Assembly: GCA_047947115.1 (NCBI GenBank)
Contig: CP170459.1
Location: 4,512,001 to 4,576,000 of the forward strand
Source of the DNA: Verrucomicrobiota bacterium
GTDB lineage: Bacteria; Verrucomicrobiota; Verrucomicrobiia; Limisphaerales; AAA164-E04
Reading direction: 5' to 3'
Length of the DNA stretch: 64,000 nt
In this document: positions 7,730 to 28,440 of the stretch, piece by piece
How the letters are laid out: the number at the start of each line of letters is the position of its first letter
Numbering within the stretch: position 1 is the first letter of the stretch
The notes under the pieces: model-generated
Told to the model about the DNA's origin: nothing
Databases searched by the model: none
The model's input: the letters and a program-made list of their open reading frames with translations, nothing else
Program-made: the position numbers and the translations under genes

Positions 7730-8029
7730 TCAGAAGGGGCAATTTTCCCCGTCAACCCAGTCTTCAGCGACCAGTTGAAGGCCGCTCATCAGAGTATCGC
7801 GTCGATCTGGATTACCCCAGCGCTCGATTCGAAAACCCTGAGTATTGGGTTCGGAGGTGATGATAAGAAGGCTCATGCCGGAGGCGTTGCGTTTGACATA
7901 TTCGAGGACCTTATCTCGAGTGCGACGATTCACCGTGCCAACAAACACATTTGGTCTGGGTTCAATAAACCAGCGTTTGAGCATCCCCCGAATGGCGGGT
8001 AGAGTGTCGTTGGCAATGAGAACGGTCAT
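7730..8029 (-). CDS. cas2: Type I-E Cas2
   Basis: [33 protein letters not shown]; follows cas1. Confidence 0.95.
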
Positions 8030-8038
8030 AAACAGAGA

Positions 8039-8926: not shown

Positions 8927-8940
8927 CAGTCGGAAACGAT

Positions 8941-10720: not shown

Positions 10721-10753
10721 ATTCTGTTTTGTATCGATTAAATATTATCTTGA

Positions 10754-13450: not shown

Positions 13451-16067
13451 CGTCGTCTTCACTCCAGGGTTCAGGTTCAGTATGTGGGCGGGTCTTGGCG
13501 GAATGATCGACGAAAACGCCGAAGTCCGGGTGATAGGATGTTGAAGATTTTTCCTCGCCAAAAATGAGATAACCATCGTCAGCCATGCATGCGACTACAG
13601 CATCGTGAGAAACGTGCTCCGTCAACCAGTGTGGACATTGCGCGTCTGACGGCACCAACCACTTGGGTACACGTACGAACCATCTGTGAAGGAACCGGGC
13701 AGCATGGATGCTCCACTCGAAATCGGAAATATTCAAGGTGGATTGTTTGGTGTCCAATGCAGTGAGTCTCCACTGATTAGACGGAAGTTGTTCGATGGAT
13801 TGAAGGATTACCAGAGGGACAGTAGGAGGCCCTTTACGTCGAGTTAGCACTCCATCGTCGTCCGCATTGAGCATGGGAAGGCCTAAAACACGCATGGCAG
13901 ATTCCGCATTGAGGGCGAGCTTTCTTTTCTCAGTCTCCATCATTTCGTACAGTTCAGACCAGCCACATGGTTCATCGTCGGCAGGAAGGGCGTAAGTAGC
14001 TTCAAGGACTTCACGGATTTGAACAGGCACAATAATCTTCGAACGACCTTGCCAGACCTGAGCGCTACGAAGGAGCACATAGGGGGCGTAAACTCTGCCG
14101 CTTCGACCGAGGGCGATTCTCAGCATCTTTGAATTCGCGTCCTCGTCAAGTTGGGGGAGCCGAATCCAAAATTCTGGCTCTTCGGCAGTGCGCTGCCCAA
14201 GCGGACGTTCGTGACGCCAAAGCCGCCCCATACGCTGAACTATCATGTCAGTGGGAGCCAGATCGGACACAATAAAATCGAGATCAATGTCGACACTTTG
14301 TTCGACAACCTGCGTAGCGATCAAGATGGACCCCGGGCCGTCTGATGAACGGTTTTTACCCAGGTGATTCAACCAGTCCTTTTCCAACTCCTGTCTTCGT
14401 TCGAAAGGAAAGCGAGCATGCAGCAAACCTAATTTCACATCCCCCTCTCGCATCTCATCTTTCAGTGCACGAAAGCCCTGTTGTGCTTCTATGACCGTGT
14501 TGCGGATCCAAAGGACATGCTGACCAGCTTCGGCACGGTCGATGAGTTCTTCAAGGACAGTTTCCGTTGAAATTTCCCCAACATGAATTTTAATGGGATA
14601 TGACTTGATCCATTCCGGCTCATGATATTTCACCCCCCCACCCGGAACCGCCTCGGTGACGAGAGGATAAGCGTCAGGGCTTCCAGATTCTGAGCAGCCA
14701 GCGGATGCCAATAGCTCTCGCCTCCTTTGGGTGGTGAGTGTGGCACTGAGAATGATGACAGAGCAGCCGAGATGCAAAAGTTCACGAACCAAGGCACACA
14801 CTAGTGTGCCAGTATAAACGTCGTAGGAATGAATCTCGTCGAGAATCACCACTTTACCTGCAAGACCGAACCTGCGGACAAAGAAATGCTTGACTGTCAC
14901 CATGCTTTGTAAAGCTTGATCGATCGTTCCAACACCGTAAGGCGCAAGAAGTGCTTGCTTACCAGACGCAAACCATGATCGAGCTTCACGAAGTTCATCT
15001 GCAGGATCTTCACCGTCTTTAGGGTTACTAAAACTATAATGAGCTTGTCTAAGCTTTATAACTGGAGTTACTTCTAGCCAAGCATGACTATGAGCAAGGC
15101 GAAGGTGTGCGGTGTCCTCGATTACGTTTTCAAGAAAATCTGCAACACGCAAGTGAATGCGATTACTGGTTACCTGAGTAGGTAAGGCAAAGTAAAATCC
15201 ATGGTGGTGGCCGGCATTAATCCACTTTTGAGCAACATGAAGGGCGGCCTCGGTTTTACCGCACCCCATCGGGGCTTCAACAATGACGATGCCTGGCTTG
15301 GTGACAGCAACACATTGCTGAACCGAATTCGGCTCGAATCCGGGCGAAATCTTTGATGAAAATGCTTTATCGAATGCAGTAAGCCGCAATTTTCCTCCAG
15401 GCCAGCCTATGACTGCCAGCGCTCTCTTTGCCTGCTTTCGAGCCTGCGACAAAGACACACCACGTTCAGATGAAAAAAATTCTTCATTTGAACCAATCCA
15501 GTCAGCAACCGTAATCAATCCGGCCAACAACCAAAGATCGGAATGGTATCGACTGAATCGTTTACTAGGTGCTTCGGCTGGAAGCGGCCCGAATATCTGA
15601 ATCAATTCTGCAGCAACAGCTTGACGGTGAACCGACGCCCAATCGCCGGCAGCTTCGAATTCGAACCTGGCGTTTCGTCCCTTAGGCCGGCCATGGTGCG
15701 CTCCGACGGCAGCGGCCCAAAGATGGGCCTTGGAAGGCTTGAGCAGAGTTTGAAGAAAAACCTGGCTGACAAGCGCGTGATCCGAAACTGATGCGGTGGC
15801 CATTCTCCTGATGGACTCGTCGAGCTCGACTGGAAACCGCCACTTAGCACATTTCATTTGAAACCCAAGCGTGATTTTCCCAATGTCATGCAGTGCCGCC
15901 AAAATTGAAGCCCCCTCAGAAAATTCCCTTTTCACGTTCTCTGGTAATAAGGAAAGGAAAGCTTCCGCCACGAACCCAACATTTACGCAATGGTCAAAGA
16001 CAGACAAACCCGGTTCTCCAGAGGGAGTTGTCTTTGCCCAGAACTGATTATAATTAAGCTGGTTCAT
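13434..16067 (-). CDS. cas3: Cas3 HD nuclease-helicase
   Basis: HDIGK, HHG, ADWIGS, APMGCGKTEAA, DEIH, SAT, TQVVEQSVDID, QRMGRLWRH. Confidence 0.97.
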   Translation of the reverse strand: MNQLNYNQFWAKTTPSGEPGLSVFDHCVNVGFVAEAFLSLLPENVKREFSEGASILAALHDIGKITLGFQMKCAKWRFPVELDESIRRMATASVSDHALVSQVFLQTLLKPSKAHLWAAAVGAHHGRPKGRNARFEFEAAGDWASVHRQAVAAELIQIFGPLPAEAPSKRFSRYHSDLWLLAGLITVADWIGSNEEFFSSERGVSLSQARKQAKRALAVIGWPGGKLRLTAFDKAFSSKISPGFEPNSVQQCVAVTKPGIVIVEAPMGCGKTEAALHVAQKWINAGHHHGFYFALPTQVTSNRIHLRVADFLENVIEDTAHLRLAHSHAWLEVTPVIKLRQAHYSFSNPKDGEDPADELREARSWFASGKQALLAPYGVGTIDQALQSMVTVKHFFVRRFGLAGKVVILDEIHSYDVYTGTLVCALVRELLHLGCSVIILSATLTTQRRRELLASAGCSESGSPDAYPLVTEAVPGGGVKYHEPEWIKSYPIKIHVGEISTETVLEELIDRAEAGQHVLWIRNTVIEAQQGFRALKDEMREGDVKLGLLHARFPFERRQELEKDWLNHLGKNRSSDGPGSILIATQVVEQSVDIDLDFIVSDLAPTDMIVQRMGRLWRHERPLGQRTAEEPEFWIRLPQLDEDANSKMLRIALGRSGRVYAPYVLLRSAQVWQGRSKIIVPVQIREVLEATYALPADDEPCGWSELYEMMETEKRKLALNAESAMRVLGLPMLNADDDGVLTRRKGPPTVPLVILQSIEQLPSNQWRLTALDTKQSTLNISDFEWSIHAARFLHRWFVRVPKWLVPSDAQCPHWLTEHVSHDAVVACMADDGYLIFGEEKSSTSYHPDFGVFVDHSAKTRPHTEPEPWSEDDDEFDQ

Positions 16068-16288
16068 TAGCTCGAAAGGTCGTTAGATTTTCTTTTTCCA
16101 ACAAGATTTTTTTGTTAATTAATTCGGGCTAAGTTTTAAACAAACATAGAGCTCGTTTGTCGTCAACACAAACAAACAGACCGATCAGATATTCACGATC
16201 ATTTCTAGGCTTCATACAAGTCTATCTCGGAAATCGAGCTTGCACCAAAAATCTTTAAACAGATTCAAAAAAAAAATTCTTCGTCCGG

Positions 16289-17413
16289 TTAGCGGATCCA
16301 ACAAACCTCCCCAAATCCGCAAGGAGATCTTACCATAGACCCAGATTCCAACACCCAAAGTAACTCCTGCTCAGGAGCGCGATCGGGTATTGAGCCATAA
16401 CCATCTGTAAAATACACCAGCAAGGCATCATCATGGTCGGGATGTTCCATCTCCTTGAAAAATGGTCTGAAATCAGTTCCTCCGCCCCCTTTGGGCAGCA
16501 AGGCCTCTTGATCCTCCAGATCATACGGGCCATGCAGTTCGGTGTCAGCGTAGTAAATTAACAGGTCCAAGTGGGGGTATGAAGCAACAATGCCACGTAG
16601 TTCTGCCATGAATTTTCCCAGGTCTTGGGGGCTTATCGACCCACTGGTGTCGATGCAAACCCGGACCTTGAGGCTCTCTCCCTGCAGGTCCTCGAGGTAG
16701 AGACCGGAACCGATGAAACGACGATCGAATCCATCAAAATCGACTTGGCTACTGGCAAGAAACCGCCAGAGGAGGGTGCGCCAGTCGAGCGACGGTTCCA
16801 GAGCTTCATCCACCGCCCGAAGAAGACCTGCGGGCAGTTGTCCAAAAGCGTCTTCCCCTGTGAGCATGCGGGCCCGTGAAAAAGCCGATGCCCAGAATGT
16901 TCTTTGTTCGCGTTCTTCTGAGGCGTCATCGATTCCTGCACCGTCATGGTTTGAACGGGTCCGAACCAGGTCGTGCCATTCAGCACTGAGGGTGTAGGGC
17001 TTGCTGTATGTGCTGAGTCGATCATAGGCTTCCTCAACTTCAAGATCTTTGAGCCTGAAATCTTCTATAGGGCTGAAGGGCAACTCCAGATCCTTTATCT
17101 CACGGACCATTCCGTTGATGACAATGTCAGCGGCGATATTCCATTGTTCGGGATCCCTTTGTCCGCACCTTGAGGAGTGGCGGAGGGCAGCGTGAAGTAT
17201 CTCATGCACCATGACGCCATCGAGTTCTCGGGCATTGATGGAACAGACAAATTGAGGATTGAACCTGATCCATTTACCATTGGTGCACGCCGTGGGTATT
17301 GCCTCATCCAAATGGTGATCGATGAACAGTGCCAGAGCTCCAAAGAATGGTTGACGGGCTCGTAGTCTCACGAGAGATCCTTCCAGCCGCAGGGTTGCTT
17401 CTTCAGTGCTCAT
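16289..17413 (-). CDS. Predicted HEXXH metallopeptidase + vWA-like domain protein (DUF2201-like)
   Basis: HEILH zincin motif, WNIAADIVIN, MIDAS DTSGS, GGGGTDFRP, YFTDG. Confidence 0.85.
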   Translation of the reverse strand: MSTEEATLRLEGSLVRLRARQPFFGALALFIDHHLDEAIPTACTNGKWIRFNPQFVCSINARELDGVMVHEILHAALRHSSRCGQRDPEQWNIAADIVINGMVREIKDLELPFSPIEDFRLKDLEVEEAYDRLSTYSKPYTLSAEWHDLVRTRSNHDGAGIDDASEEREQRTFWASAFSRARMLTGEDAFGQLPAGLLRAVDEALEPSLDWRTLLWRFLASSQVDFDGFDRRFIGSGLYLEDLQGESLKVRVCIDTSGSISPQDLGKFMAELRGIVASYPHLDLLIYYADTELHGPYDLEDQEALLPKGGGGTDFRPFFKEMEHPDHDDALLVYFTDGYGSIPDRAPEQELLWVLESGSMVRSPCGFGEVCWIR

Positions 17414-18405
17414 GCGGCTTGCAACAGGTGTTTGAGAAACGGTTTAAGTTTGGGTTCATTGGCCAGTATGGTGGCCAGTTCTCCAAGTTGCCCGTTGCTT
17501 TTTGCTCTCGAATAAACGACGTGGATAAAAAGTTGACACCACTCAGGTTTTGCCTGACTGACCAGCCACGAGAAAGCAAAACGGATGGCCTCTGACTCAG
17601 TCGCGCGATGCCCTAGTCCAAGAGTCAGCGCATACCGCTGTGAAGGCTCATTCGGAAAGTCGATTTTTGCGCCACAACCGTTCAGGATGTGCTCAAGATT
17701 AGGCAAGTCCTGATAGACCTTTAGAAAGGATTCAAACTCTAGAGCGGTTCCATCACCCACGGCTGCCGTTATTGGGCTGCCTATAGTGTGCAACTCTGAA
17801 GCCATTTGCCATGTGCGCGGGGACGGCCATGCGGAGTTTTTAGTATCCAACTGGTGCAGGAGTTCAGGTCGATAATTGATGAATGCAAGAACTTGTTCAT
17901 GAATGCCATTGTCAATTGCCCAATGTCTGAAACTTGTCAGATCGGGCTCCACTTCAAAGTGCAGGAATCGGTTGGCCAAAGGAGCTGGCATCTGGTGAAC
18001 CGAAGCACGATCTTCTCTTCGATTGCCAGCAGCCCAGATCACCCAGCCATCGGGCACGCTGTAGCTGCCGACTTTACGATCCAAAATCAATTGCTGTGCG
18101 ATGCCCTGAATGGCCGGAGGAGCCAAGTTGATTTCATCCAGAAATAATATCCCTTTACCCTCTTGTGGCAGGAATTCCGGTGGGAGCCAACGCGCCGTCT
18201 CACCGGAAGCCACAGGCAATCCCCGCAGATCAGTAGGCGCTAGTTGGCTGAGACGCAGGTCGATGATCTCGAGATCTTGTTGCCTTGCTAAATCTGCGAC
18301 AATGGAAGATTTACCAATGCCAGGAGGTCCCCAGATCATCACCGAACGATGGATCTTGTGTTCAAGTAGTTTAGTAAGTTGTTGATGAAGTTGGGTGGGT
18401 GTCAT
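17410..18405 (-). CDS. MoxR-like AAA+ ATPase
   Basis: Walker A GPPGIGKS, Walker B LFLDE, AAGN, LANRF. Overlaps both neighbours by 4 bp. Confidence 0.9.
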   Translation of the reverse strand: MTPTQLHQQLTKLLEHKIHRSVMIWGPPGIGKSSIVADLARQQDLEIIDLRLSQLAPTDLRGLPVASGETARWLPPEFLPQEGKGILFLDEINLAPPAIQGIAQQLILDRKVGSYSVPDGWVIWAAGNRREDRASVHQMPAPLANRFLHFEVEPDLTSFRHWAIDNGIHEQVLAFINYRPELLHQLDTKNSAWPSPRTWQMASELHTIGSPITAAVGDGTALEFESFLKVYQDLPNLEHILNGCGAKIDFPNEPSQRYALTLGLGHRATESEAIRFAFSWLVSQAKPEWCQLFIHVVYSRAKSNGQLGELATILANEPKLKPFLKHLLQAA

Positions 18406-20555
18406 GCCTTGGTTGGGTAAGGGTTTTCGGTCTCAAACTGAAGATTATCTCTAACAGCCGCACGAACAAGCGGGTGGCGATCCCGGGAAAGCCCATCACG
18501 CAGGTAGGGGTGTAGGCTCGGCTCCAAAGCGGTAACCGCCCTGACAAACCAGTGTTTGTCCCGGGTCAGGATCCGGTGTCGGATTCGGTCCTTGCGGTCC
18601 CAAAGGGCTAGGCAGGATCTATACCAGGGGTTGCGGCTGTAGAGCAGATCATCGGCTCCCTTGTTTGCCTGCTCCAGAAAATGGTCGCGTGCCGGGCATT
18701 CTGCTGACTGTAGGAAGCCGCTGATGGTGGCCTTCTGGATCAGAGGCTCGGGGTCCTTCATCAATCGGTTTAAGGCCTGGGGGCTAGTCCAAGGATCATT
18801 AGCAAGCAACCACCGCAAGGCGGGGTGTTCATCTTTCAACAATGCAGACTCGAACTTTTTGAAAAACGTAGGATACCGTTTGAGTTCGCTGGCCCGCTCC
18901 CAAAGCACCAATTTGGCAGCTTGCTCACGAATGGCAACCTCCTTAACCGCAAAAAGCGGCAACGAGTCTTGAAAACATTGCCAGGTCCGTTTGCTGAGGA
19001 CCTCCAGTGCGACCTCAGGCACTGGGTCCTTGACCAGCTGGCTGAGGTCCTCCCCGCTGATCCTCCAGTCCCGACAGATCTTCTTACGAATCTCAGGATC
19101 AGGATCACGGGTTAATTCGGAAAGGGTGTGGGCATAATGCTCTCCGCGATAGCGTGTGTGACTATGTGCCAGATAGTAATCGGCCACGGCATGACGGACC
19201 GAGCTGTCAGGGTCTTTGACAAGCTGAGGCCTCAGTGAGGAAGCCGGTCGCCCTGGCAGCCTGGCAGCAGCGGCCCTGAGCCTGGGGTCTTCGTGTCGGG
19301 CTGCCTTACCAACCAGGAAGGAATGGGCTGATGGATGAACCAGTGGGATCAGCTCATCAGCGGTTTTGGTCTTGATCAGCTCTTTGGCAACCTCCCTGCT
19401 AGGCTTTGGATTATCGAAAAGCGCCTGACGGATGGTGCCACCAAGGCCCCATAAGCGCTTCTCGGTTGTCCTGGAAAGGCCTTCCTTTCGCGCCAAAGCC
19501 TCGAACCAAGAGGACCGGAACCCTTTACCTATCAATTCCTCCACAGTCTCCTCAACAGCCTGATCGTCGATAGGCCATTCTAGTTTTATCTGCTCCCAAG
19601 CGGCTTGGCTGACGGACGGCTGGGAGTGGCGCGTCATCCGCCATAAAAAACGTGAATCAGTTCGCCAGTTTTGGGCCACGATTAAGGCGACTTGTGGCGC
19701 CTCTTCAAATGCCTGGTCGATCATTCGATACAAAAGGTCACGGGAACGTCCTTCCAGGCCACTGCGTCGCCAATCACGACACAGGGCAAAACTCACAAAA
19801 AACTCGGGCTTTTCGTGCTCAAGGGCATATTCAAACATGTCATCCTGTGCATAATCCTGAGCTAAATTGAGCGCTCGAATGCATAAATGTGGGTTGTGTT
19901 GAAGTTTGCGAGCAATTGCCAATACATCACCAACGACCTCGTTGGGTTTCTTGATGAAACGTTCTGCATACGGATGATCGGAGTCAGGATTTTGCCAAAG
20001 CGAACCGAGAGTGATCCGATGGTTACTGAGGTTTTTTATTACCCCCTTACCGACATCGAAGGAGGAATCCTTCAGGAATGGGACCAGGTGCGATGCTGGA
20101 AGCTTCTCTGCCGCTTTTTTGCGTACATTTTTGGACGGGTCACTAGCCAGTGCCGCCACATAATCTTCAACCAAGGCCGGCTTTCTGCTCAATAATCTGC
20201 CTAGTAAGCTCCATTTACCCATGCTTTGCCACTCAAGAAAATCCTCACAATCTTCGAGCCGCTGCGCTTCGGTGATGTAACTTTCAAGCACTTTCGTATC
20301 TTTTCTGTGGATCAGGTAAGTGTACAAACTCAGACGACAAACGTCCGGTAAAAGTCCATGTAAGGATTTTCCCTCGTTCAAAGACTTCAATGCCAAGATA
20401 GGATTATCCAACATGGCCTGGGGTTGGTCTATCCAAAGATTGATCAGCTCTTCCCATGGAGTTGATGGATTCAGAGCACGTCCCCCGGCTGCTTCGCAGG
20501 TATACGAGGACGTTTTTGGTTCTGACGCTCGGTTGTTTTGACCAACATCATTCAT
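18402..20555 (-). CDS. HEAT / leucine-rich-variant repeat protein
   Basis: NPSTP..L..P..LDNP N-terminus; repeated L..DP...VR..vA units. Confidence 0.8.
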   Translation of the reverse strand: MNDVGQNNRASEPKTSSYTCEAAGGRALNPSTPWEELINLWIDQPQAMLDNPILALKSLNEGKSLHGLLPDVCRLSLYTYLIHRKDTKVLESYITEAQRLEDCEDFLEWQSMGKWSLLGRLLSRKPALVEDYVAALASDPSKNVRKKAAEKLPASHLVPFLKDSSFDVGKGVIKNLSNHRITLGSLWQNPDSDHPYAERFIKKPNEVVGDVLAIARKLQHNPHLCIRALNLAQDYAQDDMFEYALEHEKPEFFVSFALCRDWRRSGLEGRSRDLLYRMIDQAFEEAPQVALIVAQNWRTDSRFLWRMTRHSQPSVSQAAWEQIKLEWPIDDQAVEETVEELIGKGFRSSWFEALARKEGLSRTTEKRLWGLGGTIRQALFDNPKPSREVAKELIKTKTADELIPLVHPSAHSFLVGKAARHEDPRLRAAAARLPGRPASSLRPQLVKDPDSSVRHAVADYYLAHSHTRYRGEHYAHTLSELTRDPDPEIRKKICRDWRISGEDLSQLVKDPVPEVALEVLSKRTWQCFQDSLPLFAVKEVAIREQAAKLVLWERASELKRYPTFFKKFESALLKDEHPALRWLLANDPWTSPQALNRLMKDPEPLIQKATISGFLQSAECPARDHFLEQANKGADDLLYSRNPWYRSCLALWDRKDRIRHRILTRDKHWFVRAVTALEPSLHPYLRDGLSRDRHPLVRAAVRDNLQFETENPYPTKA

Positions 20556-20579
20556 ACGATGGTAATTTAGTGGATGGGG

Positions 20580-20598
20580 TAGGACAAAAACTGTCCTA
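20580..20598. promoter_or_regulatory. Inverted repeat TAGGACA-N5-TGTCCTA, operator-like
   Basis: Perfect 7-bp arms, 25 bp upstream of the HEAT gene start. Confidence 0.5.
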
Positions 20599-20606
20599 GG
20601 CTTGTA

Positions 20607-20774
20607 TTAAATGGATTTATTGTCTTCATCTAAAGTCTCTGGGGGTTTGTTGTTGTTGTCGTCTTCGCTGGTTTTTTCATGATAGGCTTTCCAAACCTCA
20701 TCAGGAATTAGGGTCAGTGCGCTTCCTGCTTCCAGGTAAAGCTCACGCAAAGAGTCGTCTTTAGAATCAGGCAT
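20607..20774 (-). CDS. Small acidic hypothetical protein (55 aa)
   Basis: ATG overlaps the upstream stop (ATGCCTGA). Confidence 0.45.
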   Translation of the reverse strand: MPDSKDDSLRELYLEAGSALTLIPDEVWKAYHEKTSEDDNNNKPPETLDEDNKSI

Positions 20775-21009
20775 TTTGGACCCCTTCTTTTGAATTCGAA
20801 ACAACATTTTTCCAACCGTCACGAAGCAATGAATTCCGTTTCTGGTGGGCCTTGGTGCGGGATTTTGTGTGGAGATTCACTCGGAACCGTTCCTGTCGGA
20901 ATCCATCCTTAATCGCCCAGAAGTGGCACCACCAGGTGCCGTGATTTTGGAATAGGTGATGGTCGGGATTATTTTTCCGAACCCGCACCGAAAGACTCCA
21001 GCTACTCAT
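20767..21009 (-). CDS. Small basic protein resembling a three-stranded DNA-binding (integrase arm-like) domain
   Basis: NPDHHLFQNHGTWW..ERFRVNLHTK..KAHQKRN pattern; coupled to both neighbours. Confidence 0.65.
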   Translation of the reverse strand: MSSWSLSVRVRKNNPDHHLFQNHGTWWCHFWAIKDGFRQERFRVNLHTKSRTKAHQKRNSLLRDGWKNVVSNSKEGVQNA

Positions 21010-21190
21010 TGTTCGCCTCCTTCGGTTGATGATTGCATGTCTGGCCTGTCTCGACTACCCGAGGAATCCTGCGGATGGGGATCACGATGAGTTGCTCACC
21101 GTCTTTCAAGAAGGAGCTTTTGCCCTCTATGTTGATTTGATCAGGCTGACGCGATGACGCGTTACCTGTCGTTTGTTTTTTGTCTGTCAT
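21002..21190 (-). CDS. Small hypothetical protein (62 aa), first ORF after the riboswitch
   Basis: Starts ~45 nt after the terminator; stop overlaps the next ATG. Confidence 0.45.
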   Translation of the reverse strand: MTDKKQTTGNASSRQPDQINIEGKSSFLKDGEQLIVIPIRRIPRVVETGQTCNHQPKEANNE

Positions 21191-21233
21191 GGCTCAATGT
21201 TTTTTCTGGTTTCATTGGCCACCAGGATCTGGA

Positions 21234-21272
21234 AATACAAAAGACCCGCACTCCAATCAGGAACGCGGGTCT
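21234..21272 (-). terminator. Intrinsic terminator (riboswitch expression platform)
   Basis: Minus strand AGACCCGCGTTCC-TGATT-GGAGTGCGGGTCT followed by TTTGTATT. Confidence 0.85.
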
Positions 21273-21282
21273 AAAATCCGGA

Positions 21283-21400
21283 GGAGACTTACTTTCCACT
21301 CAATTGAGTGGCTCATCCGATACTTTTCAGTATCGAAGGCACCTTGGCTCTCCCAGCCAGGTTGCCAGGTCTTGCAACTTGCAGGACCGTTCCTGATGAC
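21283..21400 (-). ncRNA. SAM riboswitch aptamer, SAM-I/IV variant
   Basis: P1 TCATC/GATGA; P2 GGTC..GACC; P3 GGCAACC..GGTGCC core; P4 CGATACT-GAAA-AGTATCG; P5 CCACTC-AATT-GAGTGG; L3 GGAGA complementary to 3' TCTCC (PK-2). Confidence 0.88.
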
Positions 21401-21406
21401 GACTTC

Positions 21407-21435
21407 AACCTACATCATGCAGATGTGTTCGACAA
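21407..21435 (-). promoter_or_regulatory. Putative sigma70 promoter for the riboswitch, TTGTCG-N17-TAGGTT
   Basis: 17-bp spacing; predicted +1 falls at the first aptamer base (~21400). Confidence 0.55.
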
Positions 21436-21456
21436 TACTGTTTTGTGTCATAAAAC

Positions 21457-21774
21457 TTAGTCGGACGAGTCTGGTTCGCCAATCAAACACCAGATCCCTT
21501 CTTCCCGTATGGTTTTAAGAACTTCGTCCAGAGCCTCCTGATCGGTATCAAAGGGATCATCCCAGACGGTCGAATTATCGTATTCGTCTTCAACCTCAAG
21601 TATCCATTTGCCTTCTCCGTCTCCGTAAATTTTAACGGAAACAGAGTCGTCGCCAATGCTGATGACTTGGCACAATGGAGAATACACGAGCTCAAAATCG
21701 TCGTCGCCTCCCTCGATTTCAAAAGTTGGTCTGATCATTTTCAATGAATCTAACCAACGGGGCGTTCCAGTCAA
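21457..21774 (-). CDS. Small acidic hypothetical protein
   Basis: 105-aa D/E-rich ORF, WILEVEDE..STVWDDPFDTDQEAL. Start uncertain. Confidence 0.65.
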   Translation of the reverse strand: MTGTPRWLDSLKMIRPTFEIEGGDDDFELVYSPLCQVISIGDDSVSVKIYGDGEGKWILEVEDEYDNSTVWDDPFDTDQEALDEVLKTIREEGIWCLIGEPDSSD

Positions 21775-21844
21775 CTCCGCTCAGAGTTGATCGGATGGCT
21801 GTCGCTGGGTGTATTCCGGCGTCTACTTTTTACCTGTGCGTTTT

Positions 21845-21970
21845 ACTGCAACTGGTTTCCTGCACTGCAGAACAGTAATAAACCTGCCAGTTACTGCAAC
21901 TGCAAACCCTAAAGGGTTTTTGCAGTATGCAGTTAACCTGGCTTTAGCTTTTTCACTGCAACGCTGCAGT
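21845..21970. repeat. Putative replication origin: clustered ACTGCA/TGCAGT iterons around a central palindrome
   Basis: About nine (A)CTGCA/TGCAGT copies in both orientations at the 3' end of the helicase gene, centred on AAACCCT-AA-AGGGTTT. Confidence 0.65.
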
Positions 21971-23005
21971 AGTCCAGATACGAGTCTTAGGTTCCTTGGT
22001 CACTGAACCATCATGCTCAAGCTGCTTGAGCAAATTGTGAAAAGTACGTTCGCTCATTCCTGTCTCTTCTCTGGCAAGCTTGAGCCAGTCCTTTGTTTTG
22101 CAACCTGAAACCGGCAACAACTCAAGCAATTGCTCTGATGAATACTTCTTGCTTGCTCCTGCCTTGGTCTTCAGATCAGAAGGATCGAAGTCAACTCTTG
22201 TACAAACAGGATGACTCCAGCTTATCACGAAGCTTTCAACACTCGGATGATTACGCAGGACCAAGTCCACAGTGAAACAATCCTCTTCCTTGTGCTTGGT
22301 CATTGTCACCAGTGCATCCGGATCTCGAGCAAATACACCACTGCCTGAGAATCGATCCATTTGTTCCTTGCCGGCTTGGTTGCCCTTGGAAAAATGGTGA
22401 GCACTGATGACGGCGGCACCGGTCTGGTTGGCTATGTCATCAATTATGTTCAAAAACTCCGCTATTTCCCCGGCGGCGTTTTCATTCCTACCGGCCATGA
22501 TCTTGTAAAGCGGATCAAGGATAATGGCCCCATACTTCATCGGAGCTGCCCGGCTGCATATGGCTTCTCTGATGGTCGTAATATCGGGATTGTGACCGCG
22601 CAAGCCCCAGTAGTCGATGTTCTCCATTCCACCATCGGGATATTTTGCGACAACACCTTTGATCGATTGATCAATATTGTCCATGCGCTCCATGAAAAAC
22701 GAAGTGAGCAGTTCCATATTGACATACAAAACGCGGCACTTGTTAGTTTTAAAATCCAACCAGCTTCCGCCTGAAGCCAGTGCATGTGCAAGTTGCATCA
22801 GGATCCAAGTCTTGTTGGATTTGGATCCACCGCCAATGATCATTTTGCAACCGGCGTGTAACACCCCATCAATCAATTCCGCGGGCTTCTCGCGATCCTG
22901 CGGATTCAATTGACTGAGGGGTGTTATTTCCGGCAGATCATTGCCTTGCGCCAAGGCAAGATCCAGTGGATCCAGAATTAATTGTTCGGCATCCATCGTT
23001 CGCAT
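21953..23005 (-). CDS. RepA/AAA_25-type replicative helicase with probable C-terminal wHTH
   Basis: GGGSKSNKT, VLYVNME, IILDPLYK, HHFSKG, SGSGVFARDPD. Confidence 0.88.
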   Translation of the reverse strand: MRTMDAEQLILDPLDLALAQGNDLPEITPLSQLNPQDREKPAELIDGVLHAGCKMIIGGGSKSNKTWILMQLAHALASGGSWLDFKTNKCRVLYVNMELLTSFFMERMDNIDQSIKGVVAKYPDGGMENIDYWGLRGHNPDITTIREAICSRAAPMKYGAIILDPLYKIMAGRNENAAGEIAEFLNIIDDIANQTGAAVISAHHFSKGNQAGKEQMDRFSGSGVFARDPDALVTMTKHKEEDCFTVDLVLRNHPSVESFVISWSHPVCTRVDFDPSDLKTKAGASKKYSSEQLLELLPVSGCKTKDWLKLAREETGMSERTFHNLLKQLEHDGSVTKEPKTRIWTTAALQ

Positions 23006-23997
23006 AGGTCTCCATGTTGGCTCCAGTAATCATAAAGGTCGTTCACCCCTTTAAATGGCGACAATTCGTATACCTCCACTGAAGAGCACCCTGCATCAAG
23101 TAACTGTTTTTTCCAGCGGGATGCCGCTCGCCTTCCAGCTTCGTCATCATGTCCGAAGATCCTAATCACTTTGCCCTTGAAAAAAGGAAGCACGGCCTCA
23201 TGTATGAGTGAAGAGCTGCCAAGCATGCCCACGGGTGCACAATTAGGTTCTGGCTGTTCGGTCTGGATGATGTGATGTGCAATCAGGAAATCCGGAATTC
23301 CCTCAACCAAGGCTATGTTCCTGAACTTTGATGCCTCCACAATACCAACGGGCCAGCTTTTCCGACTACCGGGCTCGGCCTTGCTTTTAATTCCTGCTGG
23401 AAATGGCTTGTTGTCCAGCCGCCGTGCCTCAATGACGTTCCCTGTTTTGTCGCATACGTAGTAGCATTCGTTCTTGCACTTAAGAACGCCGCGCTCCGAA
23501 GCCCAGAGCAGTCCCTGCAGACCGTAAGGCCTCTCATGAGCCATTTGCTGCAGAATCTGCCTAGAGGGCTTCAGAAGGCCGCGACCTTGCTCGTATGCCT
23601 CTGCATCCAGAAACATTTTGGGATCCAAGTTAACCGGTTGATCCTTGGTCCTGCGCAAAGGGCGGATCCGCTTTGGTGGGGCAACCTTAGCCAGGGTTCT
23701 GTATATGTCCAACACCTTGGCAAAATCTTTGTGCCGATCGAAACCGTGAACAGTGGCAATGAATTGAAGTTCATCTCCAACAAGTCCTGTTCCGTGGTCT
23801 TTGAACAACCAATTGGTCTCAACTTGATAAATCCCAAAACTTGGATTCTTATCGTCCCTGAAGGGTGAAGAACATGATTTTTTGGCATAATCGCCGAAAT
23901 CCATTGCTTCCATCAGATCTGGGAGTGGAAGCGCTTGTTTGAGTTGTTTAATTTGACTCTGCACCTTGGCAGGAGTTTGAACTTTTAATTGTTTCAT
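22978..23997 (-). CDS. DnaG-like primase (degenerate CHC2 zinc finger + Toprim)
   Basis: SCSSPFRDDKNPSF..FKDHGTG..GD; Toprim LVEGIPD and GHDDEAG. Start trimmed to the ATGA overlap. Confidence 0.82.
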   Translation of the reverse strand: MKQLKVQTPAKVQSQIKQLKQALPLPDLMEAMDFGDYAKKSCSSPFRDDKNPSFGIYQVETNWLFKDHGTGLVGDELQFIATVHGFDRHKDFAKVLDIYRTLAKVAPPKRIRPLRRTKDQPVNLDPKMFLDAEAYEQGRGLLKPSRQILQQMAHERPYGLQGLLWASERGVLKCKNECYYVCDKTGNVIEARRLDNKPFPAGIKSKAEPGSRKSWPVGIVEASKFRNIALVEGIPDFLIAHHIIQTEQPEPNCAPVGMLGSSSLIHEAVLPFFKGKVIRIFGHDDEAGRRAASRWKKQLLDAGCSSVEVYELSPFKGVNDLYDYWSQHGDLCERWMPNN

Positions 23998-24404
23998 AAA
24001 TTTGAGTTGGGAGAGTACACACCCTCCCCAATTGATAAGTTTTCTGTTAATGGTTTGATTTCCACTACCTTGGCCATGGTTTGACCTTCGGCCTCGAAAT
24101 GCGCTACTTTCAGTTGGCATTTCTTTCCCTTGAGCTTCATTAGATCGAACTCGTTGTGAAGTTCCTCTGGACCTACCCATGCAGATAGATCCTTTAGCAG
24201 ATTGCTTTTGGGATGCAGGGTTGCGTTATAGGATTTCCTGATCTGAAGCGTCTCTGATGAGTCTTCAGGGACGATCAACCATGTGAAACGGACGAGGTGC
24301 TTGTTGCCATATTCAGTAGGCACAAAGCCTCTGTCCACGATCTCGGAGCAAATTGCCCGATGCCATCCCTCTTGGGGCAGTTGTCTAAGTAATTTTAACT
24401 TCAT
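23994..24404 (-). CDS. Phage-type ssDNA-binding / replication protein (OB-fold-like)
   Basis: PQEGWHRAIC..VDRG..KSNLLKDLSAW..LKGKKCQLKV; directly upstream of the primase. Confidence 0.6.
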   Translation of the reverse strand: MKLKLLRQLPQEGWHRAICSEIVDRGFVPTEYGNKHLVRFTWLIVPEDSSETLQIRKSYNATLHPKSNLLKDLSAWVGPEELHNEFDLMKLKGKKCQLKVAHFEAEGQTMAKVVEIKPLTENLSIGEGVYSPNSNL

Positions 24405-24506
24405 GATTTTATGGGTGTTCGTGTGCCTAAATGCACAGGAAATTGGTTTGTGACGGAAAATCTCAAGGCACAGATATCCATCCAGACACCCCGAAAAGGG
24501 GGTGCC

Positions 24507-24824
24507 CTACTTGCTAATCTGTTGTGTTGGATTTTTTGTTGGGGGGTGGGGGGTGTTCCTCCTGACGGCTTTGATTTCGAGCAAATTCAAGGCTTGCTTG
24601 ACACTATCTGGGTCGAAGCGAACGCACCTTTTGCCGAGGCGGGTCACCGGAATCTTTTTGGCATCTACCAACTTTTCGAGTTGGCGAATTGAGATTTGAA
24701 GCTGGGCGGCTAGCTGCCGCTTGTTGAGATAGGAATTACCATACCAGGTTGAATTGACAAAGTCGCTGCAATTTGCGCTATTGTTTCCCAATTGTGTGTC
24801 TCGTGCAGGAGTGTTCGTATCCAT
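24507..24824 (-). CDS. Excisionase/AlpA-like HTH protein
   Basis: YLNKRQLAAQLQISIRQLEKLVDAKKIPVTRLGKRCVRF. Confidence 0.8.
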   Translation of the reverse strand: MDTNTPARDTQLGNNSANCSDFVNSTWYGNSYLNKRQLAAQLQISIRQLEKLVDAKKIPVTRLGKRCVRFDPDSVKQALNLLEIKAVRRNTPHPPTKNPTQQISK

Positions 24825-24855
24825 GTGGACAACCTGTCCGACGTTTGAGGAAATG

Positions 24856-25518
24856 TCATCTGGACAATTTTGGATCCAAGTTTGTCCAACTCGCATCTAG
24901 TATAAATTGAAAACCTTTACGGCGAAACCCTCTTATTATTGGCCCTCTAGTTACGTGGTTGTATCGAATTAGCCCCAGTCTCTGAACTGCTTTCCGGTAG
25001 TTTTGCTCATCACACGTATGTCCGCTTATTTTTGAAAGGTGATAGGCTCCATCATCGTCTGTCATCATCCATAAAAACCCATTCACCCAAAACTGTAGAA
25101 TTCCAAACTCGATTTTGAACGTTTTTTTACTAATGCGTCTGGTGTATCTTCGGTGAGCAGTATGGATTTTTTGAAAAAACTCAGAATCCCCATTGAGTGC
25201 CTTCTCTAGGATATGATAAGCGAAGAACTTCAATGCAGCGTCAAGCTGGCCGAGTGAAATTAAACCAAAAAACGCTTCATCTTTTTTCGTGTCACTCTTT
25301 GTTATATCCTTTTGGCTCTTTGAGAGCCCAAAAGCTTTCCGTTGATATGCATGGACCTTTTCTTTCCAATTTTTGTGAACTTTGTCAAAGCCTTCGATTT
25401 TCGTTGTTTTCCTAAAAAAATCTTCTAGCCCGTTATCCAACTGCCATTTTTTACCTAGCTGTTGTCCAACACCTGCCAGTAACTCATCCCACTCGTCTAG
25501 TTGGTATGATTTTTCCAT
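24856..25518 (-). CDS. Hypothetical protein, possible element regulator
   Basis: ATG overlaps the integrase stop (TAATG); lies between integrase and xis-like gene. Confidence 0.6.
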   Translation of the reverse strand: MEKSYQLDEWDELLAGVGQQLGKKWQLDNGLEDFFRKTTKIEGFDKVHKNWKEKVHAYQRKAFGLSKSQKDITKSDTKKDEAFFGLISLGQLDAALKFFAYHILEKALNGDSEFFQKIHTAHRRYTRRISKKTFKIEFGILQFWVNGFLWMMTDDDGAYHLSKISGHTCDEQNYRKAVQRLGLIRYNHVTRGPIIRGFRRKGFQFILDASWTNLDPKLSR

Positions 25519-26711
25519 TAACTTCCTTTTAAGTGACTCAGTTCTCTTCGTAGGTCTAGGACCGAGTTTTGTGGATCTGGTAAACATTCCTTTAATTGAG
25601 GAAAGGCAACTTCTGATCGGATACTCCAGTAGGCTTCGGATTTATCCTTAGTTACCAGTTCCCGGTAATGCTGGTAAAGCATCGCCGTATCAGAGTGCCC
25701 CAGTTCCATGGCGGTTCGTTTTGGGTCATTGAACATCGCATAGTGGTATGAAGCAAAGGAATGGCGGAAGTCGTTCTTCCTTGCCCGTCCGATCCCAAGT
25801 TCTTGCCACGCTGCATTTAATAGTCGTCTCAAGTTTGGAGGCTTCACTTTCCCACTCCGATTGCCTTGGGCAAATAGCCATGATTGGAGGTTCGGTTGGA
25901 TCTCAACCAAGCGTCTTCTTGAGGTTTTGGCATTGGCTGCTTTGATTTCAATGTAGCCGGATTCCAGGTCAACCTCATCCCAGTTTAGCTTATCCAGTTC
26001 GGCGATCCTTAGGCCAGCGAATGCTGCGATAGCCAGGTAGGAATGGATCTTGGGATCCGCAACTGACAACAACTTTCTTAGTTGCTCTGGCGTCAGTATC
26101 TTGATGGGATCTGGTTTGGCTTTGACTTTCTCGATTCTGGAGACTGGGTTCTCAGCAACAAAGCCGTGCTTCAAGGCATGGGTGAAAAGTCCGTTCAGGA
26201 CTGTCCTGAAGTTGTTCATGCTCTGTGCGCTCAGTCCAAGGCTATGAATCCAATGGTCGATCTCCGAAGCTTTGATGGTTGCAGCAATTTTCTTTTGGAA
26301 AGCCTCATTAAATCGGCCTAATCTGTAGCTCAAATCTTTGAGGTATCGTTCACTGTTTTGTTTTCGAGATTTGGTGCCCAGATAATCTGCAATCAGATCG
26401 GAAACAGTGCAGCTGTTCTTGGAGCTTTCCAGGTGGGATAGGTAAAAGTTGACGGCTTCAGAAAGTGTGGCTTTGAAGGGCTTGAGGCGATCATCACATT
26501 GGACTGCTTCAAGACGTAACTGGTCGCTGATTGCGAAGGCTTTGTTGCCGAGGTTTTCAAGTTCGATTAAGATTTGATCCCTGCGAGTATTCGCCTCTTT
26601 TTTGGTTTTGAAGAATTCGCGGGTGCGCTTGCCATCCTTTGGGTAGCCGACGACCCATTTTGAAGTAGGAGAATGCTTGTAAGGTTTGACAGAAACTTTC
26701 GGCGAGCCCAT
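25518..26711 (-). CDS. int: Tyrosine recombinase/integrase
   Basis: AGLRIAEL, AKT, NDFRHSFASY, LGHSD..HY catalytic motifs; adjacent to attR. Confidence 0.95.
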   Translation of the reverse strand: MGSPKVSVKPYKHSPTSKWVVGYPKDGKRTREFFKTKKEANTRRDQILIELENLGNKAFAISDQLRLEAVQCDDRLKPFKATLSEAVNFYLSHLESSKNSCTVSDLIADYLGTKSRKQNSERYLKDLSYRLGRFNEAFQKKIAATIKASEIDHWIHSLGLSAQSMNNFRTVLNGLFTHALKHGFVAENPVSRIEKVKAKPDPIKILTPEQLRKLLSVADPKIHSYLAIAAFAGLRIAELDKLNWDEVDLESGYIEIKAANAKTSRRRLVEIQPNLQSWLFAQGNRSGKVKPPNLRRLLNAAWQELGIGRARKNDFRHSFASYHYAMFNDPKRTAMELGHSDTAMLYQHYRELVTKDKSEAYWSIRSEVAFPQLKECLPDPQNSVLDLRRELSHLKGS

Positions 26712-26740
26712 GCGTTTAAGTTCGCATATGAGCGTTTTTG

Positions 26741-26759
26741 CGTCAATAAAAAGTCAATG
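26741..26759. repeat. Putative integrase arm-type site (right), CGTCAATAAAAAGTCAATG
   Basis: Direct repeat of 4586-4604. Confidence 0.6.
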
Positions 26760-26803
26760 TTTCGGCACTAAGCTTGAGCATTGTGTGTAAGTCGTTGAAG
26801 GAG

Positions 26804-26852
26804 TGGAGCCAGCTGTCGGGGTCGAACCGACGACCGACGGTTTTCAAAACCG
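26804..26852 (-). other. tRNA-Thr-like 3' fragment and attR core (CGGTTTTCAAAACCG, 26838-26852); not a complete tRNA
   Basis: Minus strand ACCGT-CGGTC-GTCGG-TTCGACC-CCGAC-AGCTGGC-T-CCA = variable loop, T-arm, 3' acceptor strand and CCA. Confidence 0.88.
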
Positions 26853-28440
26853 ATGCCGCGAATTGCTCGATCTTTTGTTTTCTGACATCAAGCGTCATGG
26901 AGGCCAGGCCGCACAATTGGTTCAAGAACTTTCACAGATTGTGAACCCGGACCAATGGCCACTGACCATGGTTGATGTGGATGAAACCATGTGGAGTTCC
27001 CATCCGAAAACAAGTGGTTCCCACCGTGGCCCCTGGTATCGACTGTCCGTCAATGAAACCAGACTTGCCAGCAGCTACCGCAGAAATATTCCGACCCCCG
27101 ATCATGAAGGATTTCAGCAACGTATCATCGAGTATATGTTCAACACGCGGCCAGACGGAAGTTTTCGAGTCAACGATGCGATCGAGGATGGTTATGGTTA
27201 CGGATATCTATCTCAAGAAGCTTCGGCATCGGGCATTCCGAACCGTCCCGACATATCCTATGCAGGAGAACCCGGCTTTCCGGTTGACGGTTTGGCTTTT
27301 AACAGCAGCACCTTCGTCAACCCGAGAGATCCTAGCGGATTTGCCCGGATGGAATGGAGAATAGGAGAAGTGTCCAATCCGGAAACCGAAAACTACGTCC
27401 CCGGCACACCCTGGATTTATGAGATCGAACCTCTCTGGCACAGCGATCCCATGACAACTTTTTCAGAGACTATGGCCATCCCGCCGGACCAGCTCAAACC
27501 GGGACACACTTACCGCGCGAGAGTGCGACACGTCAACACAGAGGGGCATGCCAGTCATTGGTCACTACCATTGGAATTTGTCGCCTCGGCACCGGATTTG
27601 ACCTTGTTTCGGAACGGATTGGTCATCAGTGAAATCATGTATCACCCAGCTGGGGATTCCACGGCCGAATACATTGAACTTCACAATATCGGCGAAGCCA
27701 CTCTCTCCCTGAGTGGCTTCCGTTTCACGAAGGGAATCGATTTCGATTTCCCCGATGACACTGAAATAGAGCCAGGAGGATACCTGTTGATCACAGGCGA
27801 CCGGCAAGCCTTTGAAAGAGTGTATGGGCCAAACCTACCCATAGTCGGGGAATGGGAACAAGGGGACCGGTTGAGCAACGCCGGAGAAAACATCAAGCTC
27901 TCCTACGGGGCAGGCATCCCCATCATCGACTTCACGTATGAAACAGAAGCCCCCTGGCCAACCGCTCCCGACGGAAAGGGTTCATCTCTGCAACTTGCCA
28001 ACCTCCGTTCTGGCTTGGATCACACCAATCCCGCGCAATGGAAAGCAAGCATTCAACCAGGAGGCACGCCGGGCAAAAGCAATGGTAACTCTCTTGAAGA
28101 TTGGCTGACGTCTTATGGGATTATCGAATCCAATCTCGAAGAAGATCCGGACAATGACGGTCTGCCTTCGTTACTGGAATATAGTCTGGGAAGCAACCCA
28201 AACGTTGCCGATGTTTCATCCATCATGACCATCACATACACCGAGGCAAATGTCACGCTAGCCACCCGAGTTGATCTCGGAGCCACCGATGTGGAGGTGT
28301 CTGCACAATTTTCCACCAACCTGAAAGCCTGGGAAACAATCAATAGCCCGGCCATCAATCCCACCAGTCCGACCGAACTGAAATGGACCGCCCCAACCCA
28401 CCCGAAGGGATTCTTCCGCCTTCAAGCCACTCGACGTTAA
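26844..28440 (+). pseudogene. C-terminal half of the interrupted CotH/lamin-tail protein
   Basis: FQNRCRELLDLLF continues in frame from IRIG; second LTD (LVISEIMYHP..EYIELHN); DPDNDG..LEY..GSNP tail. Confidence 0.88.

Follow-up and report, generated by a model that had tools for sequence, protein, structure and literature searches.

What does an S-adenosylmethionine (SAM) riboswitch control when it is carried by a mobile element and no sulfur-metabolism gene stands behind it? This question is raised by a stretch of 64,000 nucleotides (nt) from the genome of a Verrucomicrobiota bacterium (assembly GCA_047947115.1, contig CP170459.1, positions 4,512,001 to 4,576,000), which is called the window below and is numbered from its first letter. 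SAM riboswitches are known from textbooks as regulators of the supply of methionine, cysteine and SAM. An initial annotation, made from the letters alone, had described a complete SAM-I/IV riboswitch with an antiterminator inside a mobile element. Based on the analysis given here, the locus is best read, at a probability of roughly 0.7, as a functional SAM-I/IV riboswitch that has a promoter of its own and acts as a transcription-termination OFF switch driving a low-SAM response module.

The aptamer and its paired regions (P1 to P5 and the pseudoknot PK-2) are as follows.

21280..21404, minus strand: SAM-I/IV aptamer (RF01725, 48.0 bits; covariation in relatives)
21399-21395 with 21317-21313, minus strand: P1, seen in the sequence, the cmscan alignment and the fold
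21390-21367, minus strand: P2, one hairpin with a single C-A mismatch
21366-21338, minus strand: P3, seen in the sequence, the cmscan alignment and the fold
21335-21318, minus strand: P4, a 7-pair hairpin in the fold, placed after P3 and ahead of the 3' strand of P1
21311-21296, minus strand: P5, a covarying hairpin 3' of P1
21353-21349 with 21287-21283, minus strand: PK-2, GGAGA in loop L3 with UCUCC in the 3' tail

A covariance-model search against the SAM clan, which the initial annotation had named as the check on its class assignment, was performed with cmscan and Rfam 15. A significant match to RF01725 (SAM-I-IV) was obtained at 21404-21280 of the minus strand, with 48.0 bits against a gathering score of 41.1 and an E-value of 9.8e-5. 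The match spanned model positions 1-99 of 99 and was the sole cmscan match in the whole window. P1 to P5, the SAM-clan core and PK-2 were all found in the sequence where they had been placed on the minus strand, so the proposed class was borne out both by the score and by the architecture. The clan core around the junction (AUC, GGCAACC, AAGGUGC and GAUG) is present in the cmscan alignment and is invariant across 23 aligned relatives. In passages of PMC2864571, these RNAs were first reported as SAM-I/SAM-IV variants, without an internal loop in P2 and known mostly from metagenomes; in a section of PMC6890682, the class is described by an undivided P2, the absence of PK-1 and a P4 helix, with P5 and PK-2 in common with SAM-IV. 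As the class requires, P2 of the window is unsplit (no P2a/P2b) and has neither an internal loop nor PK-1, and simple P2 hairpins were seen in 27 relatives. P2, P4 and P5 are hairpins of differing sequence across the 27 leaders; P4 exceeds the length allowed by the Rfam consensus and was scored by cmscan as an insertion, and a hairpin occupies the P4 site in most relatives. Likeness to the class (RF01725, clan CL00012) thus covers the score above the cut-off, the undivided P2, the lack of PK-1, P4, P5 with PK-2 and the clan core, whereas the setting differs: the RNA lies on an integrative element, with a gene for an 80-amino-acid (aa) protein and a HEAT/MoxR/VWA cassette behind it and not Met/SAM/sulfur genes. 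The usual association of the class with genes of Met/Cys/SAM metabolism, which is a typical trait and not a structural criterion, was not seen in the window.

For the 181-nt leader, a folding energy of -75.3 kcal/mol was obtained, with a z-score of -4.88; none of 200 shuffles was as stable. Relatives were gathered in two ways, by searches of genomes with the Rfam model and by an aptamer pattern scan of one genome per species. The pattern scan gave at least 121 loci (80 with 9-kb flanks), a mix of SAM-I, SAM-IV and SAM-I/IV with a few chance matches. When 23 verrucomicrobial-type leaders were analyzed by RNAalifold, P1, P2, P3 and P5 were predicted, with 26 pairs in all. Compensatory change, in which both sides are altered and pairing is kept in at least one sequence, was counted in 13 of these pairs; the alignment was made by MAFFT, which is not structure-aware, and the pair changes are counts without R-scape-type statistics. 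At least five Watson-Crick pairs of PK-2 were found in 22 of the 23 relatives, in the compensatory versions GGAGA:TCTCC, TGGAGA:TCTCCA, AAGAAT:ATTCTT, GGAAAA:TTTTCC, TGAGAG:CTCTCA, CGGAG:CTCCG and GGAGAG:CTCTCC. Judged by its sequence, the RNA is an ordinary, complete SAM-I/IV member with a classical expression platform, and it would be expected to bind SAM.

The expression platform is formed by two elements that share the same nucleotides.

21233..21272, minus strand: intrinsic terminator, a 13-pair stem at 21272-21242 (8 G-C pairs) followed by the U-rich tail TTTGTATTT; it holds the 3' arm of the antiterminator
21388..21397, minus strand: antiterminator 5' arm ATCAGGAACG, made up of the 5' strand of P1, J1/2 (the junction between P1 and P2) and the start of P2

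The intrinsic terminator and the 10-nt antiterminator complementarity of the initial annotation were both recovered. Over all of its 10 nt, the 5' arm ATCAGGAACG (21397-21388) is exactly complementary to CGTTCCTGAT (21265-21256), which lies in the terminator's own 5' arm, and a complementarity of this length was reached by 0 of 500 shuffles of the downstream region. Constrained folds gave -75.3 kcal/mol for the terminator form, which is the minimum free energy fold, -72.5 kcal/mol for a closed P1 with the terminator and -67.6 kcal/mol for the antiterminator. For the nascent RNA up to 21256, the minimum free energy fold is the antiterminator helix (-62.6 kcal/mol). Of 26 related leaders, 25 have, downstream of the aptamer, a stretch of at least 7 nt that is complementary to the P1 5' strand, and in 18 of the 26 this anti-P1 element is contained in a terminator with a T-run. 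The mutual exclusion of terminator and antiterminator, together with the recurrence of the anti-P1 element, agrees with the logic proposed earlier (OFF at high SAM), as far as it can be read from the letters. The other eight leaders keep the CCTGATGC element and have no terminator; they include the metH-adjacent loci L085, L086, L089 and L098, in which the start-codon region repeats GCATCA. This repeat suggests translational control in the terminator-less leaders, where the anti-P1 element would be opposed to the start-codon region.

In the proposed mechanism, P1 and PK-2 would keep the aptamer closed when SAM is bound, the 13-pair terminator would form and transcription would stop at about 21233. 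At low SAM, the free P1 5' strand would pair over 10 nt with the 5' arm of the terminator; the terminator would be blocked by the antiterminator and RNA polymerase would read on. Taken together, the energies and the nascent fold would correspond to the usual kinetic OFF design. In the classical S-box (SAM-I) leaders of Gram-positive met genes, a ligand-stabilized P1 prevents an antiterminator that disrupts the terminator. The OFF logic is common to both, whereas the aptamer class, the phylum and the controlled genes differ here. Metatranscriptome contigs from four runs of four studies carry parts of the stretch at an identity of at least 99%, among them a 309-nt contig covering 21337-21645 and a 126-nt contig covering 21243-21368; the shared contig end at 21243 is a sequence-variant breakpoint and RNA libraries may contain DNA, so that these contigs are uninformative on termination or expression level.

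Two features were placed upstream of the aptamer.

21407..21435, minus strand: putative sigma-70-type promoter, with -35 TTGTCG at 21435-21430, a 17-nt spacer and -10 TAGGTT at 21412-21407
21443..21452, minus strand: upstream box TATGACACAA, about 53 nt before P1 (52-55 nt in the leaders) and 7 nt before the -35 hexamer

The promoter of the initial annotation was supported in part. By phylogenetic footprinting, TTGnnn and TAnnnT hold fixed conserved positions in related leaders, and TTGTCG and TAGGTT sit at these positions. Against a promoter of the switch's own, a consensus promoter scan makes no call directly upstream, and the -10 hexamer is weak, with 3 of 6 consensus matches. The box TATGACA(C/A)AA was found by a strict pattern in 15 of 30 verrucomicrobial leaders, at the same place in the window, L001, L004-L008, L018, L030, L066, L085, L086, L089, L098 and L159; 20 of the 30 read TATGACA alone. 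It was found in 0 of 36 other SAM-clan leaders and only once on the two strands of the 64-kb window, and it could be a transcription-factor site. A genome-wide search for the TATGACA box with TTG gave 21 matches, about chance level, and no regulon emerged. The stop codon of an upstream 105-aa open reading frame (ORF) lies only 53 nt before the aptamer, so read-through from the replication module of the element into the switch is possible.

Three small ORFs come directly behind the switch.

21002..21190, minus strand: small ORF 1, 62 aa, conserved at the protein level (LFKDGEQ-IVIP--R-PR) in L004 and L007 despite DNA divergence
20767..21009, minus strand: small ORF 2, 80 aa (P0001), of the HHLWNNxGTWW family, with AGGAGG 7 nt before its ATG
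20607..20774, minus strand: small ORF 3, 55 aa from the ATG at 20774 or 71 aa from a GTG at 20822; the ATG overlaps the stop of small ORF 2 (ATGCCTGA)

None of the three small ORFs had a Pfam, PADLOC or NCBIfam match, and an ORF like small ORF 3 comes after the 80-aa gene in L016 and L184. Scans with the same three libraries found no sulfur-metabolism gene downstream in the window, as had been said in the initial annotation. Low SAM would turn on not methionine or sulfur genes but three small ORFs that are coupled in translation. The 80-aa protein carries the motif NP-HHL(W/F)NN-GTWW-H…R-R-sL-T…A…R, and its gene recurs at the same position. In the genome searches it was found directly behind the switch in seven of ten Rfam-positive matches (the loci without it are L006/L014, L009/L013 and L010/L015). 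Among the pattern matches listed, a distance of 124-273 nt separates it from the aptamer core upstream in ten loci (L030, L042, L065, L066, L085, L086, L089, L090, L098 and L127), nine of which belong to the 14 flanked loci labeled Verrucomicrobia, and it was found in none of the remaining non-verrucomicrobial pattern loci listed. Of the 24 verrucomicrobial leaders of both searches combined, 16 have the 80-aa gene directly behind the switch.

The family itself is large. Its 50%-identity clusters gave 1006 representatives at E<=0.001 and 765 at E<=1e-10, and the best 150 representatives are 73-141 aa long; a word-index homologue search returned 19 close relatives only. Of 401 genomes sampled from the phylum, 68 carry a member, among them 28 of 28 genomes of one genus, and members are annotated as 'hypothetical' or 'uncharacterized' in every source checked, including Akkermansia (B2URC8_AKKM8). 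A dedicated partnership of switch and protein is weakened by the finding that the family often occurs without a switch: 0 of 29 further family loci (L141-L169, mostly from one genus) reached the Rfam gathering score in a scan that recovered 10 of 11 known leaders as a control, and aptamer-like cores below the threshold were seen in L146 and L159. In the genus where all 28 genomes carry the family (L142, L144-L145, L147-L158 and L160-L169), the 80-aa gene is immediately preceded by a short gene ending …NGAYNTLKK-G-L and by a T-run, with no recognizable riboswitch in front. In four Verrucomicrobiales loci (L085, L086, L089 and L098), the unit of switch and small protein is divergent from a TonB-dependent receptor gene and the B12-dependent metH.

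Farther downstream, a larger set of genes follows on the same strand.

20575..20598, minus strand: GC-rich hairpin …GGACAGTTTTTGTCC…ACCCC (GGGG-GGAC…GTCC-ACCCC), immediately upstream of the HEAT gene and lacking a U-run on this strand
18402..20555, minus strand: HEAT-repeat protein, 717 aa (PF02985, PF13646)
17410..18405, minus strand: MoxR-type AAA+ ATPase, 331 aa (PF07728 AAA_5), with Walker A GPPGIGKS at residue 26
16289..17413, minus strand: DUF2201 protein, 374 aa (PF13203, PF09967), with a zincin-like HEILH (HExxH) at residue 70 and the VWA MIDAS motif DTSGS at residue 255

The HEAT, MoxR and DUF2201 genes overlap by 4 nt, and 725 nt separate the HEAT gene from the riboswitch upstream. 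The order HEAT-MoxR-DUF2201 behind the switch was seen in the window and in L014 and L016, which are two genomes of the same genus. A metagenome scan with the HEAT protein gave five short contigs, with orthologues in L181-L184; four of the five contigs have upstream DNA, three of these with the complete small-protein motif and one beginning inside that gene, and one contig reaches the aptamer core. Transcription that passes the terminator probably continues into the HEAT/MoxR/HExxH-VWA cassette. At low SAM, the cell would then make a small regulator-like protein and probably a MoxR-VWA remodeling or proteolytic module with a HEAT partner. As for the nature of that module, none of the three proteins matched a PADLOC or NCBIfam family that would give it a function; with PADLOC-DB 2.0, the small ORFs, HEAT and DUF2201 matched 0 families and MoxR only a marginal IetA (E 2.5e-4).

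It is also possible, though rather doubtful, that the switch controls the three small ORFs only and that the HEAT-MoxR-VWA cassette is a separate transcription unit alongside. The GC-rich hairpin and a 50-nt gap part the small ORFs from the HEAT gene, and the cassette may therefore have its own promoter. The hairpin is conserved in the window, L014, L016 and L184; it might serve in RNA processing or stability, or attenuate transcription weakly. In many Verrucomicrobiales loci, moreover, one or two small ORFs stand behind the switch and a convergent gene follows. On the other side, the hairpin has no U-run on this strand, and the linkage of switch and HEAT gene persists in L014, where the 80-aa gene is missing and yet the order switch-hairpin-HEAT is kept. 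A third point against a separate unit is that SAM riboswitches lead related MoxR-VWA operons directly.

These operons were found in L012, L017, L023, L041 and L073, where a SAM-clan switch is followed by genes for MoxR, a VWA protein with HExxH and MIDAS, and a MetK-like protein. L012 and L017 are of the same order as the window, and in both the 80-aa gene comes first; L023, L041 and L073 are labeled Rokubacteria, Acidobacteriales and Chloroflexi, respectively. When the pair of the window was compared by BLASTP with that of L017, E-values of 2.8e-6 for MoxR and 6.6e-7 for the HExxH region of the VWA protein were obtained. Common to both are a SAM-clan riboswitch in front, a MoxR protein with Walker A and a VWA protein with MIDAS and HExxH. 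The window differs in that no MetK-like gene is present and the 717-aa HEAT protein precedes the pair, that its proteins are shorter (331 and 374 aa vs. 472-537 and 479-500 aa) and that the 80-aa gene and two small ORFs come first, on a mobile element. By sequence comparison, the cassette of the window is a distant, compact relative of the riboswitch-led operons of MoxR, VWA and MetK paralogue, with HEAT in the place of the MetK paralogue. The MetK paralogues of these sister operons and the divergent metH and TonB-receptor neighbors of the four Verrucomicrobiales loci support a link of the module to SAM biology. CbbQ-CbbO and NorQ-NorD are client-specific MoxR-VWA pairs. The window resembles them in having a MoxR AAA+ protein with a VWA/MIDAS partner beside a possible client, and differs from them by the zincin-like HExxH of its VWA protein and by riboswitch control.

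Three side observations were made among the SAM-clan loci. In L015 (G068:C137, 2083-4354), a SAM-I/IV aptamer with a terminator directly precedes a gene for a 684-aa SNF2 helicase, ZorD/DpdE-like (E 5.5e-46), after which a fragment of a type I specificity subunit is found. A SAM-I/IV-like leader in L060 (9001-10287) is followed by a 227-aa methyltransferase of the PEMT/ICMT family, a SAM-consuming enzyme. One Eisenbacteria contig (L092/L093) holds three SAM-clan aptamer matches within about 2.4 kb on one strand.

The switch and its genes are carried by an integrative element, with the following features.

4433..26856, minus strand: integrative element of about 22.4 kb, delimited by gene content, the split flanking gene and the core repeat of the attachment site (att)
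26711-25518, minus strand: tyrosine integrase (PF00589)
16067-8039: type I-E cas genes (cas3, cas8e, cas11, cas6e, cas7, cas5, cas1)
about 5271-7680: CRISPR array, 39 repeats with a 61-nt period

From its right end, the element consists of a tRNA-Thr(UGU)-like att, the integrase, a 243-aa ORF, HTH_17, a primase-like protein (with weak matches to both CHC2 zinc finger and Toprim), an AAA_25 helicase, the 105-aa ORF, the riboswitch cassette, the type I-E cas genes and the CRISPR array; the type I-E CRISPR-Cas system is complete. The flanking ORFs at 2522-4576 (LTD and CotH) and 26803-28440 (LTD and fn3) are two parts of one gene: its orthologue is a single frame of 1193, 1212 and 1184 aa in G001, G007 and G021, respectively, and both parts map head to tail on the intact orthologue. 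The 18-nt att core GGTTT(A/T)CAAAACCG(G/A)TGC is present at both junctions, at 4433-4450 and 26839-26856. It emerged by way of the split gene, since the core is imperfect and a direct-repeat search gave only the CRISPR array and chance pairs. At the right end (26856-26807), 48 of 50 nt match the tRNA-Thr(tgt) gene of the host, and at the left end (4456-4432), 24 of 25 nt match the D and anticodon arms of tRNA-Thr(tgt); the element therefore carries a tRNA-Thr-like attP. An assignment of the att fragment to tRNA-Gln was rejected, because the tRNA-Gln genes of the host do not match and tRNA-Thr(tgt) does. By these matches, the element sits in a secondary look-alike site within the LTD/CotH protein gene and not in its cognate tRNA-Thr(UGU) gene. 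The sequence CGTCAATAnAAnGTCAATG occurs once near each end (4586-4604 and 26741-26759), and these repeats may be integrase arm sites. The borders, the att core and the split gene confirm the location on a mobile element given in the initial annotation; an integrase at the end, a tRNA-derived att, a doubled core and an uninterrupted site in three relatives are the marks of an integrative element, which would be expected to be mobile. Within the CRISPR array, one spacer is repeated four units apart (5637-5728 and 5881-5972, 100% identical over repeat-spacer-repeat) and a second in adjacent units (6064-6155 and 6125-6216).

The same genome contains a second copy of the core module and the switch at 1.687 Mb, with 97.3% identity over 3325 nt and a riboswitch scoring 48.6 bits against RF01725. 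Aptamer, PK-2, terminator and antiterminator are identical in the two copies, and 3 nt differ 5' of P1. Identity is lost just past the T-run of the terminator and returns over 210 nt of the 80-aa gene (96.7%); the cargo that follows this gene differs in the second copy, with insertion sequence (IS) elements, and the integrase is different as well. In this copy (L003, G000:C1:1678000-1697000), two IS elements (DDE_Tnp_1_4 and DUF772/DDE_Tnp_1) adjoin a very large adhesin-like gene. In this genome, SAM-I/IV was found only on the two mobile-element copies, and the class is sporadic among relatives (6 of 101 and 4 of 151 genomes, with the genome of the window included in both counts). The only SAM-I riboswitch of the host (73.9 bits; G000:C1:3965544-3965668, L170) precedes a thrC-like gene of the threonine-synthase family. 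No SAM-IV was found in the host genome; a SAM-II search was blank and is uninformative, since 14 control genomes gave no match either.

This setting brings in a conflict or anti-phage module, in which loss of SAM, for example through a SAM-degrading enzyme of a phage, would open the switch and release a MoxR-VWA effector on a defense island. Such a role is judged unlikely. In its favor, the element also bears type I-E CRISPR-Cas, and the switch in relatives stands beside TIR and nSTAND1 genes (L011), upstream of McrBC-like genes (L016), directly before the ZorD/DpdE-like SNF2 helicase of L015 (E 5.5e-46) and beside NERD/helicase genes and a Tn3 transposase (L013); the sporadic class is, in this genome, confined to the two mobile-element copies. 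All of this is guilt by neighborhood only. No PADLOC model matched HEAT or DUF2201, and the IetA match of MoxR was marginal. The switch with the 80-aa gene also occurs at ordinary places in chromosomes, with metH and a TonB receptor gene as neighbors, the MetK-paralogue operons point to SAM supply, and the aptamer pattern had 0 matches in viral contigs. A wider scheme, a two-step SAM circuit, is speculative and would be a long shot as a whole: the riboswitch would release an arm-type regulator that reprograms other genes, and mobile elements or defense islands would have captured this circuit to fire the HEAT/MoxR/VWA effector or element functions when SAM collapses, e.g., under phage SAM-degrading enzymes.

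An AlphaFold2 model of the 80-aa protein built on a 21-sequence alignment (mean predicted local distance difference test score, pLDDT, 83.8) has four strands followed by a long helix. In an ESM-Atlas feature search, integrase arm domains came next after the protein's own cluster, at 0.93-0.94, with Arm-DNA-bind_4, Tn916 Integrase_DNA (19 of 30 matches) and Arm-DNA-bind_1 as the arm clusters. With VIA-align over 48,161 chains, the arm domain of the HPI integrase (3jtz) scored Z 3.9, residues 8-58 of lambda integrase (1z1b) Z 3.6 and AP2 Z 4.2. The conserved protein of about 80 aa may be a small protein that binds DNA by an integrase arm-type fold, as a stand-alone arm-type domain; this is to be taken as a lead, not as a finding. 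Several results weigh against DNA binding. The unrelated DUF1488 (2gpi) scored higher, at Z 5.8, and all of these VIA Z values lie in the range that the tool calls common. The protein had no Pfam family at E<=0.01, no arm-domain profile and no NCBIfam match; a PDB sequence search gave nothing below E 0.44, a Foldseek search of the PDB with the model had a best E-value of 0.23, and hhalign of the family profile to the two integrases of this genome reached only E 0.054 (residues 27-51) and 0.013 (residues 13-45). The integrase arm-type domain is a three-stranded sheet on a helix; the model has four strands and a helix.

If the arm-type likeness were taken at face value, the switch could serve the life cycle of the element, the arm-type-like protein acting at low SAM on the integrase, the arm sites or the replication module and altering excision or copy number. 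This is very unlikely. The switch does stand directly behind the integrase-primase-helicase module in both genome copies, the nearest named feature clusters are the integrase arm DNA-binding domains (0.93-0.94), the N-termini of both integrases give weak alignments with the family profile and repeated arm-like sites are present at both ends of the element. The similarity scores, however, are non-significant, the TATGACA box is unlike the arm-like repeats, and the gene of the 80-aa family belongs to the chromosomal core of whole genera, where no mobile element surrounds it.

A change of ligand, the odd genes then reflecting another metabolite, can be considered highly improbable. Sections of PMC10853860 describe spermidine-sensing SAM-I variants that have changes at SAM-contacting positions and stand before polyamine genes, and name unusual gene association as the signal that led to variant riboswitch classes. 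A SAM-clan aptamer, non-standard genes and a terminator OFF platform are common to those variants and to the window, whereas the conserved core is unchanged here. Position 2 of J1/2 is G in 23 of 23 aligned relatives (invariant CATCAGGA) vs. A in the Rfam consensus, which would fit a changed ligand; but L065 and L127, outside the alignment, have A at this position, and any of A, C, G and T is found there in ordinary SAM-clan matches. The clan core (AUC, GGCAACC, AAGGUGC and GAUG) is intact, and some members lead MetK-like genes. That the riboswitch is a decaying relic, captured with host DNA and regulating nothing on the element, is barely credible: the cargo behind the switch differs between the genome copies and in the second gives way to IS elements, but aptamer, PK-2, terminator and antiterminator are intact and, save for 3 nt 5' of P1, identical in both copies, and the pairings are kept by compensatory change across relatives.

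The locus is thus preferably read as a SAM-I/IV OFF switch that would open at low SAM for a small regulator-like protein and probably for the cassette behind it. In a limited full-text literature search, which did not cover the SAM-I/IV contexts in the supplements of PMC2864571, no paper was found to link a SAM riboswitch to MoxR, DUF2201 or such a mobile element; the same limited search gave nothing on the function of DUF2201 and nothing specific on SAM riboswitches in mobile elements, anti-phage contexts or Verrucomicrobia. By that search, the low-SAM response is undescribed, and the place on a CRISPR-carrying integrative element, the conserved pairing with the 80-aa family and the link to a HEAT/MoxR/VWA cassette are new. 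Here, a canonical SAM switch is found on a CRISPR-carrying element with an uncharacterized, conserved target, and switches of its clan recur before MoxR/VWA modules in several phyla. The locus provides an experimental handle on the role of the family of about 80 aa (1006 clusters at 50% identity) and on that of SAM-controlled MoxR-VWA machines, and it is a natural setting in which to ask if the SAM level of the cell serves mobile elements as a cue.

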